Positions 29,476-35,342 of a stretch of 64,000 bases of DNA are shown here, piece by piece. How positions within the stretch are numbered: position 1 is the first letter of the stretch; each line of letters begins with the position of its first letter. Origin of the DNA: Nannocystis sp. (lineage in GTDB: Bacteria > Myxococcota_A > Polyangia > Nannocystales > Nannocystaceae); the NCBI RefSeq assembly GCF_016717175.1, contig NZ_JADKFZ010000004.1. One strand, written 5' to 3'. The translations under genes and the position numbers were made by a program. The notes below the pieces were generated by a model. That model saw only the letters and a program-made list of their open reading frames with translations, was not told where the DNA came from and made no database searches.

Positions 29476-31518
29476 GTGCGTGAATGTGCGGAGCTGGAGA
29501 TCGGGCTGTCGCGGCGCGACGCGGGGTCGTACGCGGTCGAGCTGCGCTTCACGCAGCCGGGCAGCGACGCCGATGTGCGGGTCGGCGAGGGCGAGGGGCT
29601 GGCCTGCGCGCTGGATCTGGCGGGCCTCAAGGAGCTGCTGGCGCAGCCGGAGGCGTACGGGCGGGCGCTCGGGGCGGGCCTGTTCGCGGCGCCGAAGGTG
29701 GCCGAGACGCTGGCCCGCGCCCAGGCGGCGGCCGCCAGTCAGGACCTGCCGCTGCGCGTGCGCCTGGCGATCGCGGTCGACGTGGCCGAGCTGCACGGGC
29801 TGCGCTGGGAGCTGCTGCGGACGCCGGACGGGACCCTGGTCAGCGCGGGCGAGCGGATCTTGTTCTCGCGTTACCTTGCGAGCGTCGACTGGCAGACGGT
29901 CAAGCTGCGGCCGCAGGCGTCGCTGCGGGCGCTGATCGTGATCGCTGCGCCGGCCGGGTTGGCGGCGTACGGGCTGGCGGAGCTCGACGTCGCGGCCGAG
30001 CTGGCGCGCGCGCAGGCGGTGCTGGCGGGGATCGAGACGGTGGCGCTGGCGGGGCCGGGTCAGGCGACCGCGACGGCGATCATCGACGCGCTGCGCAGCG
30101 GCTTCGACGTGCTGTACGTGGTGGCGCACGGGTCGTGGCAGCGTGGTGAGGCGTTCGTGTGGCTCGAGGACGCGGCCGGCGCGGTGGCCCGGATCGCCGG
30201 GGCCACGCTGATCGCCCGGGTCGCCGAGCTGCAGCAGCGGCCGCGGCTGTGCGTGCTGGCCTCGTGCGAGAGCGCGGGCGCGGGCGCGGGGGAGGACCCC
30301 GCGGTGCTGGCCGCGCTCGGGCCGGGGCTGGCGCGCGCCGGGGTGGCGGCGGTGGTGGCGATGCAGGGCCCGCTGAGCGTGGCGACGGCGGCGGTGTTGC
30401 TGCCGCGGCTGTTCGCGGAGTTGTTGCAGGACGGGCAGGTCGATCGGGCGCTGGCGGTCGCTCGCGCGGCGGTCCGTGAGCGGAGCGACTGGTGGATGCC
30501 GGTGCTGTTCATGCGCCTGCGCTCGGGACGGATCTGGTACACGCCGGGCTTCGGCGGCGAGGGCGGGCAGTTCGAGAAGTGGCCGGCGCTGCTCCGCAGC
30601 ATCGCCCAGGGGCGCTGTACGCCGGTGCTCGGGCCGGCCCTCGGCGACGCGCTGCACGGGTCGTCGCGCGAGCTGGCCCACCGCTGGGCCGACGAGTACG
30701 GCTACCCGATGGCGCCGGGCGGGCGCGAGGATCTGCCGCACGTGGCGCAATACCTGGCGGTCCACCAGGACGAGCGGTTTCCGATGGACAAGCTCGAGGG
30801 GTCGCTGCGCGACGCGGTGGTGTCACGATTCCCGCAGGTGCTCACGGGGGGCGCGGGCGAGGGCACGCTCGACGAGGTGCTGGCGCGGGTGGCCGACTGG
30901 CGGCTGGCGCAGGGGAGCTTCGATCCGTACCAGGTGCTCGCGCGGCTGCCGTGTCCGCTGTATGTGACGACGGCGAGCGACGGGCTGCTGGCGCATCACC
31001 TGCGTCTGGCGGGTCGTTCACCGCAGGTCGCGCTGTGCCCGTGGAACCCCGACGTGGTGGCCGACGCGGCCGTCGCCGAGGCGGCGAGCGTGGAGCGGCC
31101 CGCGATATATCACCTGTTCGGGCATATCTCGGCCCCGAACTCGCTGGTGATCACGGAGAACGATATCTTCGACTTCTTGATCAGCGTGAGCGCGGATCGC
31201 GAGGTGATCCCGCCGCGGGTGCGGGCGGCGCTGGTCGACTCGTCGCTGCTGATCCTCGGGTTTCCGATCGACGATTGGAAGTTTCGCGTGTTCTTTCGCA
31301 GCCTGATGAACCGGGCCGGCGGGGGCCGGCGCAAGCGCTACACGCACGTGGCGGCGCAGATCGATCCGGAGGAGGCGCAGACGATCGACCCGGCGCGCAC
31401 GCGGCGTTACCTCGAGGAGTACTTCGAGGGCTCGGACATCACGATCTATTGGGGCAGCGCGGAGGACTTCCTGCGCGAGCTCGCCGGGCGGCTGCCGGGG
31501 GGGAGGCCGGGCGCTTGA
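29476..31518 (+). CDS. CHAT (caspase-like) + SIR2-like (SIR2_2) fusion effector
   Basis: CHAT dyad YVVAHGSWQRGE / CVLASCESAGAG; SIR2_2 blocks VLGPALGDALHGSS, LYVTTASDGLL, IYHLFGHIS, LVITENDIFDF, LLILGFPIDDWKFRVFF; GTG start. Confidence 0.8.
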   Translation: MRECAELEIGLSRRDAGSYAVELRFTQPGSDADVRVGEGEGLACALDLAGLKELLAQPEAYGRALGAGLFAAPKVAETLARAQAAAASQDLPLRVRLAIAVDVAELHGLRWELLRTPDGTLVSAGERILFSRYLASVDWQTVKLRPQASLRALIVIAAPAGLAAYGLAELDVAAELARAQAVLAGIETVALAGPGQATATAIIDALRSGFDVLYVVAHGSWQRGEAFVWLEDAAGAVARIAGATLIARVAELQQRPRLCVLASCESAGAGAGEDPAVLAALGPGLARAGVAAVVAMQGPLSVATAAVLLPRLFAELLQDGQVDRALAVARAAVRERSDWWMPVLFMRLRSGRIWYTPGFGGEGGQFEKWPALLRSIAQGRCTPVLGPALGDALHGSSRELAHRWADEYGYPMAPGGREDLPHVAQYLAVHQDERFPMDKLEGSLRDAVVSRFPQVLTGGAGEGTLDEVLARVADWRLAQGSFDPYQVLARLPCPLYVTTASDGLLAHHLRLAGRSPQVALCPWNPDVVADAAVAEAASVERPAIYHLFGHISAPNSLVITENDIFDFLISVSADREVIPPRVRAALVDSSLLILGFPIDDWKFRVFFRSLMNRAGGGRRKRYTHVAAQIDPEEAQTIDPARTRRYLEEYFEGSDITIYWGSAEDFLRELAGRLPGGRPGA

Positions 31519-34500: not shown

Positions 34501-35342
34501 AGCGGCCGCTGCGGGTCGCGCTGGCGGTCGATCCAGCGGGCCTCGCGGTGGCGGCGGGCGTGGCGTTCGGGGCGACGAGCGTGACGCTGATGGCAGAGCA
34601 AGCGGTGGGGACGGAGCCCTCGCCGCGCACGAGCACGATCGCGGCCGGGGTGCCGATCACGGCGCTGGCCCTCGATCACGCGGCGGAGCGCCTCGCGGTG
34701 GCGACCTGCAGCGAGCGGATCGGCCTGGCGACGTGCGCACGCGGCGAGGTCCGGGTGTACGCGGTCGCCAGCGGGGCCGAGGTCGCGGGTCCGCTGGCGG
34801 TCGATGGCGTGCACGGGCTGGTGTTCGCGGCCGACGGTCGACGCCTCGCCGGGCTCGTGCCCGGCGCGCCGCCGGTGGTGTGGGAGCTCGCCGACGGCGA
34901 GCGCCTCGCGTTGACGGTGCGCCGCTCGCTCGGCGAGTTCATCGCGGCCGACTTCTCCGCGGACGGCGACGTGCTGCTCGCCAGCGCCGAGGCCGACAAC
35001 GCAGCGGTGGCGCTGACGCTGTGGGATCTGCGCTCCGGCGAGGGGCTGGCGCCGCCGCTGGTCGCCCACAACCCCGCGGTCGGCAGCTTCGATCCGGGGG
35101 CGCAGCGGTCCGTGCTGCTGGCGGCGCACAGCGGGCTGGTGGTCAGCAGCAGCTTCGACGGGGTGCTGCTGTGGGATATCGCCGACGCGACGCTGACGAG
35201 CCGCGCGTGCACGCTGGCGGGGCGCGAGCTGACGAGCGCGGAGTGGACGAGGTTCCTCGGCCGCGGCGAGCCGCAGCAGGCGCAATGCGGCGCGCCGCTA
35301 TCCGAACATCGACGCCGCGATGCTCCCGATCGGCGCCTATGA
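31515..35342 (+). CDS. nSTAND-type STAND NTPase with C-terminal WD40-like beta-propeller repeats
   Basis: TTG 31515 overlaps upstream stop (TTGA); NPYVGPRALRSGEALFGRDRE, Walker A YSPSGAGKSSLLQAGL, Walker B VLLIDQFEEL; C-terminal ~600 aa of repetitive beta-strand units. Confidence 0.8.
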   Translation: MTATSPAGSPANPYVGPRALRSGEALFGRDREVARLFDLMLAERIVLLYSPSGAGKSSLLQAGLVPRLHAEGFTVRPVVRVGMAPPSDAPAGVNRYVLSTLLSLEEDVPKDRQLDLAALAGCTLAAYLSRGSEADADEVLLIDQFEELLTVDPTAVAAKRVFFAQLGEALRDTRLWVVVAMREDFIAGLDPYRAAVPKKLHTTFRLELLGREAALLAVRGPAAAAGVTFELAAAERLVDDLRQVRVPIVDGGVELRPGPHVEPVQLQVVCRGLWAALPADDRSIGLADLAELGDVDQALARYYDAQVLAAARASGAPERALRLWLERELVTVQGLRTQVLRTPGATQGLGDAALTALIDSLVLRSETRRGMMWVELAHDRIVAPLRASNAAWMAKNLAPTSRQAALWDSRGRPESLLLATAAEAEALLAAAGEWTATERLFLEQSRIVRRREAATRRYQRTIRVLAAVVGLLVVAGLSVGIVLIRRAAAAALEEAEQEARASAEAAARAQAEQRAAEQALIRQLIAQVALYREQQPELAALLAVAASTRLADPWQRKAALLNAAVTQPQLRSRLASRPGDDGAGPAAFVQIAAAGGQLYALDRRGQVLRLGLEDRGQASLLPAGTRAGDFAADPVRERVAIVAGQAIELWEVGATTPTASFVLPADPAGLGDAPRPDARVWLEGLGFSADGRTLAVVRRRSDGPSRGFVIDVEARSIRPLTGKLPVSALALAPDGALAVAGLLAVDGSIVVFSGPTLARGVLTPGHADVGRVYLARFDPHRPRLLTAGEGGAATLWTVEGGTLSAPRPLPLGGGNVRDALFLADGKLVIATETRISVWSGEPETPWGSPITPPTRATATLAAVGADGLQVAVVSLADAPIHVFDPRRLAPWQLAAPRVPMTEGGDAAFQGVAPRVAIDRAGARVAATSFDRREGGRVTVLDVASGSSVVTAAGQGEQFMALAFADAGKLVAIDAAGAVTAWTVAGGAAQTLWKLPQRPLRVALAVDPAGLAVAAGVAFGATSVTLMAEQAVGTEPSPRTSTIAAGVPITALALDHAAERLAVATCSERIGLATCARGEVRVYAVASGAEVAGPLAVDGVHGLVFAADGRRLAGLVPGAPPVVWELADGERLALTVRRSLGEFIAADFSADGDVLLASAEADNAAVALTLWDLRSGEGLAPPLVAHNPAVGSFDPGAQRSVLLAAHSGLVVSSSFDGVLLWDIADATLTSRACTLAGRELTSAEWTRFLGRGEPQQAQCGAPLSEHRRRDAPDRRL

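Follow-up and report, generated by a model that had tools for sequence, protein, structure and literature searches.

A CHAT protease with a histidine-less SIR2-like tail paired with a predicted membrane-spanning nSTAND1-WD40 receptor in Nannocystis: a candidate immunity or cell-death module

Conflict systems centered on the nSTAND1 family of NTPases, which was defined by Kaur et al. 2021 (PMC8195603), combine an NTPase of the Pfam family PF20703 with caspase-like, TIR or SIR2-type partners and a variety of sensors; they are enriched in multicellular bacteria and have been predicted to counter invaders or to play an apoptosis-like role (PMC8195603; PMC7159879). Here we analyze a two-gene system with an NTPase of this family, carried by a 64,000-nucleotide stretch of contig NZ_JADKFZ010000004.1 from the Nannocystis sp. 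assembly GCF_016717175.1 (henceforth the window, meaning that whole stretch). The first gene (gene A) encodes a CHAT caspase-like protease fused to a SIR2-like domain, and the second (gene B) an nSTAND1 NTPase joined to a WD40 propeller. Whereas the described nSTAND1 systems center on sensors of the FGS/C-type-lectin kind and on EAD-EAD coupling, this pair has a WD40 propeller behind a transmembrane helix and a SIR2 tail devoid of the catalytic histidine. It is a variant of known STAND conflict systems that is absent from the searchable defense catalogs, and we favor, with guarded confidence, its interpretation as a translationally coupled immunity or cell-death module organized around a membrane-spanning STAND receptor, in which the CHAT protease would be the output and the SIR2-like domain would provide the docking surface. 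All results are computational, and the homologue counts come from mutually related sequences.

Several other systems share individual elements with this pair. The Apaf-1 apoptosome and the bacterial Apaf-1-like STANDs (PMC13581612) have in common with it a STAND NTPase, a WD40 sensor, a caspase-family output and a logic of proximity-induced activation. However, Apaf-1 is an NB-ARC/AP-ATPase confined entirely to the cytosol, where CARD-CARD contacts bring in caspase-9, whereas the window pair has an nSTAND1 NTPase, a predicted division between compartments by a transmembrane helix and a pseudo-sirtuin as the candidate coupler. The antiphage sirtuins ThsA, DSR2, KomC and Avs5 share the fold and the SIR2_2 family with the tail of gene A, and these enzymes assemble into oligomers or filaments that could be put to use as a scaffold; yet they are NADases needing both an Asn and a His, while the clade of head-bearing tails to which gene A belongs lacks the His throughout. 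SAVED-CHAT/PCaspase and Craspase (Csx29) share the CHAT His/Cys dyad, sensor-driven assembly and the frequent linkage to a second caspase-fold peptidase. The window pair departs from them in taking its input from a STAND NTPase, where they depend on a cyclic oligonucleotide or a CRISPR complex, and in having a linked peptidase that is C25-like, not C14. The PknD Ser/Thr kinase of Mycobacterium is a cytoplasmic enzyme with one transmembrane helix and a propeller on the outside; the predicted bitopic topology is common to it and gene B, which differs in having, in place of a kinase, a STAND NTPase that would switch by oligomerization, and a protease as its putative output.

Three further candidates were set aside. 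Avs (AVAST) was rejected as PADLOC returned no match for gene B, the effector is a separate gene and the propeller lies behind a transmembrane helix. The EAD-coupled conflict system (Kaur et al. 2020) was rejected for want of an EAD match on either gene; in a relative (P0381) an EAD7 is present on the effector, yet the neighboring NTPase opens directly at its NPYVGP motif. In the EACC1 system a small transmembrane protein is encoded 5' of the caspase gene, and no counterpart of it occurs at this locus.

The arrangement of the two genes is as follows:

29459..29463, + strand: GGAGG, Shine-Dalgarno-like, 12 nt 5' of the GTG start of gene A (read from the sequence)
29476..31518, + strand: gene A, CHAT and His-less SIR2-like domains, 680 residues, GTG start (open reading frame, Pfam, and coding frame from GC content at third codon positions, GC3)
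31502..31506, + strand: GGAGG Shine-Dalgarno sequence within the 3' end of gene A, with 8 nt separating it from the TTG start of gene B
31515..31518, + strand: TTGA junction, at which the TTG of gene B (31515-31517) overlaps the TGA of gene A (31516-31518)
31515..35342, + strand: gene B, 1275 residues, nSTAND1 NTPase, transmembrane helix, helical stalk and tandem WD40 propeller

The original prediction, made from the sequence before any search, was of a CHAT-SIR2 effector gene joined via TTGA to an nSTAND gene, and every one of these items was located where it had been placed. Both products correspond to public proteins of the Nannocystis sp. assembly, gene A to P0001 at 100% identity and gene B, read from TTG 31515, to P0121 at 100% identity and coverage. 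The N-terminus of gene A aligns with those of its homologues (consensus MxxYADLEIGL). The proposed TTG start of gene B is favored by the match to P0121, by the spacing of the GGAGG, by the homologues, which start 7–10 residues ahead of the same NPYVGP motif, and by the shift of high GC3 from the frame of gene A to that of gene B in the 300-nt bin from 31501. The alternatives, a TTG at 31449 and a long open reading frame from 30492, were rejected on account of the GC3 switch, the position of the Shine-Dalgarno sequence and the homologue N-termini. The overlap suggests that the two genes are translationally coupled. A scan for sigma-70 promoters gave no match, such a scan being uninformative in a myxobacterium whose GC content in the window is ~74%. 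An OmpA-like gene 36 nt upstream of gene A was considered as a third component and rejected for lack of conservation across related loci.

Gene A comprises two globular domains and a connecting segment:

29659..30492, + strand: CHAT caspase-like protease domain, residues 62-339 (Pfam PF12770, 88.5 bits against a cut-off of 24, 7e-25)
30514..30585, + strand: inter-domain linker, residues 347-370, RLRSGRIWYTPGFGGEGGQFEKWP, conserved
30571..31500, + strand: SIR2_2-like Rossmann domain, residues ~366-675, without the canonical catalytic residues

An AlphaFold2 model built with 32 homologues (predicted local distance difference test score, pLDDT, of 81) likewise displays two domains separated by a disordered linker at residues 354-365, over which the pLDDT falls below 50. 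Foldseek matched the N-terminal half to Csx29, SAVED-CHAT and DdvA, and the C-terminal half to ThsA, KomC, DSR2 and SIR2-HerA. Searches of PDB sequences returned no close solved relative of gene A, of gene B or of the C25-like protein described below. Column counts were taken from 120 homologues of gene A with 49–100% identity, in all of which the CHAT dyad, His218 (codon 30127-30129) and Cys264 (codon 30265-30267), is invariant. From this conservation we read the CHAT domain as the catalytically intact output of the module. Within the linker the family shows no variation at R347, G351, Y355, P357, G358, F359, E367, W369 and P370, and this segment may be a processing or docking site.

A quite different picture emerges for the SIR2-like domain. 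The importance of an Asn and a His for the SIR2_2 enzymes has been described (PMC12700824). The SIR2_2 blocks of the original prediction hold as far as fold and profile are concerned, with Pfam PF13289 matching at residues 495-649 (61.4 bits against a cut-off of 24.5, 1e-16) and ThsA (7uxt) as the top structural match by Foldseek (E=1.2e-11), but both catalytic residues are gone, a loss that had been overlooked. By phmmer, and by hhalign at 97% probability, the equivalent of ThsA N112 is Ala500 (codon 30973-30975) and that of ThsA H152 is Phe548 (codon 31117-31119). The His column contains F in 107, Y in 9 and L in 4 of the 120 homologues, and F in 126, Y in 11, L in 11 and A and M in 1 each of 150 representatives of clusters formed at 50% identity, so that the catalytic His is missing in 270/270 relatives; the Asn column retains Asn in only 55/120. 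Because the His is absent throughout and the Asn is replaced by Ala500 in the protein at hand, the domain is, as judged from its sequence, not a canonical NADase. We read it instead as a putative constant coupling or regulatory module. The Pfam name alone is a poor ground for annotating these proteins as NAD-depleting effectors.

Gene B displays a more elaborate organization:

31551..32660, + strand: nSTAND1 NTPase module, residues 13-382 (Pfam PF20703, 129.9 bits against a cut-off of 27.1, 2.4e-37)
31671-31688, + strand: Walker A, GAGKSS, residues 53-58 (translation)
31941-31955, + strand: Walker B, DQFEE, residues 143-147 (translation)
32904..32966, + strand: single predicted transmembrane helix, residues 464-484, VLAAVVGLLVVAGLSVGIVLI, between NTPase and propeller
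32967..33209, + strand: stalk, residues 485-565, a long juxtamembrane helix and two short helices (AlphaFold2 fragment, H2-51, H56-69, H73-84)
33222..35177, + strand: tandem WD40-type beta-propeller, residues ~570-1221, ~14 blades (AlphaFold2 and Foldseek), predicted to be extracytoplasmic
35184..35288, + strand: C-terminal two-helix cap, Cys1232...Cys1258 (RACTLAGRELTSAEW...C) (AlphaFold2 fragment, H744-755, H761-768)

The gene B NTPase is a member of nSTAND1 as delineated by Kaur et al. (PMC8195603), and its Walker A and B motifs are almost invariant across 21 aligned homologues. The transmembrane helix has a Kyte-Doolittle value of 2.78 (19-residue window) and an Arg-rich N-side flank; a single counterpart of this helix is found in 118/120 gene B homologues, at residues 441-505. 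By the positive-inside rule, the positively charged flank of such a helix lies on the cytoplasmic side. The mean number of K+R around the helix is 6.2 on the N-side versus 3.0 on the C-side, with the N-side exceeding the C-side in 115/117 homologues. Downstream of the helix there are two conserved Cys pairs, C1065/C1074 in the propeller region and C1232/C1258 in the cap, the latter (C752 and C778 of the modeled fragment) being invariant in 21 sequences. A Cys pair occurs within the last 70 residues in 107/117 homologues, and the count of Cys after the helix is even in 95/117. On account of the charge bias and the conserved Cys pairs, the NTPase is predicted to be cytoplasmic and everything after the helix, including the propeller, to lie outside the cytoplasm. 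At the same position relatives carry LysM and CBM9, PQQ-type, and PD40/TolB-type domains (P0235, P0171 and P0234, respectively), which are typically extracytoplasmic and speak for the same placement.

Pfam WD40 matches in gene B remained below threshold. AlphaFold2 modeled residues 481-1275 with a pLDDT of 85.9 and a predicted template modeling score of 0.84, displaying ~56 strands, and the top PDB matches of the model, 2ymu, Pwp2 (5i2t) and AIP1 (1nr0), are all tandem seven-bladed WD40 proteins (Foldseek E-values of 3e-25 to 3e-24 over ~700 columns). The high-confidence prediction for the C-terminus is of a WD40 propeller with 7+7 blades in tandem. The modeled fold and the Foldseek matches agree with the WD40-like propeller of the original prediction, neither of them pointing to a non-propeller fold.

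That prediction had further drawn a parallel to the eukaryotic apoptosome and inflammasome, which assumes a cytosolic WD40 sensor, and here it does not carry over: the conserved transmembrane helix, which had been overlooked, parts the NTPase from the propeller. Stated in full, such a reading would make the pair a cytosolic STAND-WD40 sensor of an intracellular phage protein, with a dual effector acting by CHAT proteolysis and by SIR2-catalyzed NAD+ depletion. It names the correct domain families by Pfam, it has precedents in described WD40-bearing bacterial Apaf-1-like STANDs with caspase-like domains (PMC13581612), and its NADase component accords with the match of the SIR2 fold to the NADases ThsA, DSR2 and KomC. 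However, because the helix, the positive-inside bias and the Cys-pair statistics point to a propeller on the outside, because the His is missing in every relative and the Asn is Ala here, and because the NTPase belongs to nSTAND1, not to NB-ARC or NACHT (Pfam gave no NB-ARC match in gene B at E<=0.01), we regard it as highly improbable.

The association of the two genes is not confined to this locus. Screening one genome for each species with a sequence pattern, we found at least 516 loci with a gene A relative; 1461 nSTAND1 relatives were recovered as well. The system is not limited to myxobacteria, the majority of these loci being from Chloroflexota; other hosts include Actinomycetota, Acidobacteriota, Verrucomicrobiota, Gemmatimonadota and, as tractable organisms, Serratia ureilytica (L071) and Cupriavidus (L069, L075). 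Among 69 loci that were fetched with at least 1.5 kb of downstream sequence, an nSTAND1 gene lies directly downstream on the same strand in 62; at 27 of these 62 junctions the genes overlap (by 4 nt in 16), and a further 22 have gaps of 0–20 nt. Direct fusions also occur, with the architectures nSTAND1-CHAT-SIR2 (P0320, P0389) and SIR2-nSTAND1-WD40 (P0310). In 56 matched pairs, the identity to the window proteins is 47% for CHAT, 43% for the SIR2-like domain and 47% for the NTPase, corresponding to 0.81–0.82 bits/residue, as against 0.054 bits/residue, ~15-fold lower, for the sensor after the transmembrane helix. The suggestion of a diversifying sensor is borne out by these values. No homologue was found in a search of phages; plasmid records yielded only versions with a headless SIR2, and no association with mobile elements was seen. 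PADLOC matched gene A only weakly and in part (to SAVED_CHAT, ThsA and LmuA) and gene B not at all, and NCBIfam matched neither gene. The pair is undescribed in the searchable literature, which omits most subscription journals, so that an earlier mention, for example in supplementary data, is possible.

To place the SIR2-like tail in a wider context we searched a library with residues 360-680 of gene A, which recovered 3666 cluster representatives, and inspected the best 150. Among these 150, the tail follows CHAT, TIR, TIR with an unassigned region, C25+CHAT, or CHAT with a metallophosphatase, and sometimes bears an EAD7 on its C-terminal side. Wherever the context was readable, the next gene encodes an nSTAND1 NTPase regardless of the head:

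TIR head: locus L085, nSTAND1 gene next
TIR head with unassigned region (TIR-X): locus L089, nSTAND1 gene next
CHAT-metallophosphatase head: locus L088, nSTAND1 gene next
CHAT-SIR2-EAD7: locus L086, nSTAND1 gene next
TIR-caspase head: second module in this window (module 1, described below), nSTAND1 gene next

The earlier idea of swappable effector heads is supported by this variety on a constant tail. A sister clade consists of headless, standalone SIR2_2 proteins of ~300 residues which retain the His in 120/120, the Asn in 119/120 and the GAGxS loop. In 4/4 loci examined these too are followed by nSTAND1, namely nSTAND1-TPR proteins (L090, L092, L093) and an nSTAND1-transmembrane-propeller protein (L091); the first three loci are from actinomycetes and the last from Ensifer adhaerens pB. 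By its motifs the headless SIR2/nSTAND1 two-gene system is probably active, and it also seems to be uncatalogued. On the simplest reading, an active SIR2 effector would first have worked with nSTAND1, and the head-bearing clade would subsequently have lost catalysis while keeping the sirtuin. The series from active SIR2 with nSTAND1 to the head-bearing His-less tail with nSTAND1 makes the latter a candidate case of an immune enzyme turned adaptor, comparable to the catalytically dead TIR scaffolds.

For topology in vivo, ligand, oligomerization, adaptor role, substrates and outcome, we infer the following scheme. The nSTAND1 domain of gene B would reside in the cytoplasm, with the transmembrane helix and the stalk holding a disulfide-stabilized tandem WD40 propeller in the periplasm. 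The fast-evolving propeller would bind a ligand outside the cytoplasm, which could be a component of a phage or of another invader met at the envelope, or else a cue signaling damage or non-self. The signal would pass through the helix and the stalk, and cause nucleotide-dependent oligomerization of the NTPase at the inner membrane face. Gene A would be recruited through its C-terminal SIR2-like domain, a putative descendant of an active sirtuin NADase that was already a partner of nSTAND1, and the resulting clustering would activate the N-terminal CHAT protease. This in turn might cleave cellular targets or a second protease, for which the linked C25-like peptidase is a candidate, and so arrest growth or kill the cell. 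A precedent is SAVED-CHAT/PCaspase of the myxobacterium Haliangium, in which an oligomerization-activated CHAT cleaves a second caspase-fold protease (bioRxiv 10.1101/2023.06.23.546230).

Several observations weigh against this scheme. Its topology is based on hydrophobicity, charge bias and Cys statistics over mutually related sequences, and the neighboring NTPase is missing in 7/69 loci. The contact between the SIR2-like domain and the NTPase is likewise a matter of inference: neither gene A nor gene B has a match to an EAD, CARD or Death family in Pfam, and a comparison of pairwise divergences is only suggestive of a specific contact. The divergence of the SIR2-like domain correlates better with that of the NTPase (r=0.78) than with that of its own CHAT domain (r=0.60; bootstrap confidence interval of the difference 0.07–0.31), but the former value does not differ significantly from that between CHAT and the NTPase (r=0.69; interval -0.04 to 0.24). 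The defense role is contextual only, with PADLOC and NCBIfam having no model of the pair and phages yielding no homologues. Finally, because many polar residues of the SIR2-like domain are invariant (E561, D563, R604, R608, R619, Y622, H624 and Q628) and the GxG loop is retained in part (G386), the domain could have kept an ability to bind or process NAD or a different nucleotide.

These last features would also fit a protease-gated zymogen, in which CHAT, not the SIR2-like domain, is contacted by the NTPase and licenses a SIR2-like toxin by cutting the linker; such a toxin may process NAD+ or another nucleotide through non-canonical residues, or may act by forming filaments. The flexible linker with its invariant motif is compatible with this proposal, linked effectors are commonly licensed by proteolysis (bioRxiv 10.1101/2025.11.14.688446), and the headless SIR2 partners of nSTAND1 appear by motif to be bona fide enzymes. 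Nevertheless, the His that is essential in ThsA, DSR2, KomC and FAM118 (PMC12700824) is never present in the tail, and the Asn position is relaxed. Furthermore, because the same tail also follows TIR heads that have no protease, proteolytic licensing could not be general, and we consider the zymogen unlikely, though the least so of the alternatives discussed here.

The window contains a second module on the opposite strand, at a distance of 2272 bp from that of gene A:

25122..27203, - strand: module 1 effector, TIR, caspase (C14) and SIR2-like domains (Pfam, translation)
20605..25125, - strand: module 1 NTPase, nSTAND1 with a transmembrane helix at residues ~404-424

The original prediction had this module follow the same logic, and it indeed repeats the effector/nSTAND1 pairing, the 4-nt overlap (GTGA, 25122-25125, where the GTG start of the NTPase overlaps the effector stop) and the transmembrane helix. 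Its SIR2-like domain is also without the canonical residues (TTHD, YKLLG). The region of its NTPase predicted to lie outside is a Cys-rich, non-propeller segment of ~1080 residues with no Pfam match, and 22 of the 23 Cys of the NTPase come after the helix, in line with an outside location. The N-terminus of this NTPase contains three copies of a PRPLG repeat. The proposed paralogy of the two modules is weak: in pairwise alignment the NTPases share 30% identity over ~300 residues, and the effectors are alignable only over 58 residues of the SIR2-like domain. By these alignments the two modules are best described as distant relatives with one design, not as recent paralogues.

Downstream of gene B there is a possible accessory gene:

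38597..40807, + strand: C25-like caspase-fold peptidase (blastp 1e-36 to 9e-27 versus the flank cluster)

Its match to Pfam Peptidase_C25 is 24.6 against a cut-off of 23. The gene lies 3.2 kb downstream of gene B with two genes between, which makes its linkage to the pair loose; a C25-like peptidase gene is found beside the pair in 27/66 related loci. A second C25-like peptidase is encoded in the window at 56862-58820 (- strand), and both are homologous (E 3e-42 to 9e-27) to the gene that accompanies the pair in these loci. A role for this family as the second protease of a cascade is possible. The two intervening genes encode an Eco57I-like N6-adenine methylase with a TaqI_C specificity domain (35499-37433, + strand), directly after gene B, and a protein with a weak metallophosphatase match (37447-38868, + strand); the methylase region may be a restriction-modification or BREX-like neighbor. 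The module 1 NTPase gene is abutted at its 3' end by a gene for a SLOG (LSDAT_prok) and SLATT/DUF4231 membrane effector (19312-20589, + strand), which could form a nucleotide-signal producer/receiver pair with the TIR-headed effector of module 1.

Between the divergent TrmO-like gene (27891-28604, - strand) and the OmpA-like lipoprotein gene preceding gene A is a tandem repeat (28610-28708) with 6.6 copies of a 15-bp unit, GACTCGCTTTGTCCG, with 5 matches where chance would give 0.02; an array of operators and a repeat element are both possible explanations. An 18-bp unit repeated 4.7 times with 97% match (28399-28483) lies inside the TrmO-like gene and encodes a repeated hexapeptide. A Ser/Thr kinase with FG-GAP repeats (43010-47404, + strand) and an RCC1-repeat/DUF4215 protein (53595-56252, - strand) are typical myxobacterial signaling genes with no obvious tie to the module. 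In an Anaerolineae locus (L003, 13009-15774) the pair is followed by a CHAT protein with an FGE-sulfatase (C-type-lectin fold) domain and by a separate SIR2_2 gene, an arrangement suggestive of another module in tandem with different wiring.

These surroundings bear on whether the system is directed at invaders or serves as a death or signaling receptor in development, kin recognition or envelope stress, responding to an extracellular cue from self or neighboring cells. The concentration of the loci in filamentous Chloroflexota, Actinomycetota and myxobacteria, their chromosomal location with no phage and essentially no plasmid matches, and the predicted extracytoplasmic sensor are all compatible with the latter possibility, and Kaur et al. 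have tied such systems to the multicellular habit (PMC7159879). However, a hypervariable sensor combined with a conserved signaling core is typical of arms-race receptors, the neighbors include a restriction-type methylase, a SLOG-SLATT gene and a second module, and two unicellular hosts, Serratia ureilytica and Cupriavidus, have the module too. We consider this alternative distinctly unlikely, and return to the immunity or cell-death module as the preferred interpretation.

To our knowledge, STAND/NLR-type receptors are considered to be intracellular sensors across all domains of life. A sensor situated behind a membrane helix would widen STAND signaling to cues at or beyond the envelope. More broadly, we tentatively propose, as an idea that is plausible but that we hold less firmly than the reading of the locus itself, that the widespread relatives of this pair might constitute bacterial transmembrane NLR-like receptors, in which a rapidly diversifying outside sensor, be it a beta-propeller or a LysM, PQQ or other domain, would signal through a STAND NTPase to a caspase-like protease docked via an adaptor sirtuin. 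If this were true, they would represent a hybrid of Toll-like sensing on the outside and inflammasome-like execution on the inside, and their tails would furnish an example of a pseudo-sirtuin serving as a scaffold.

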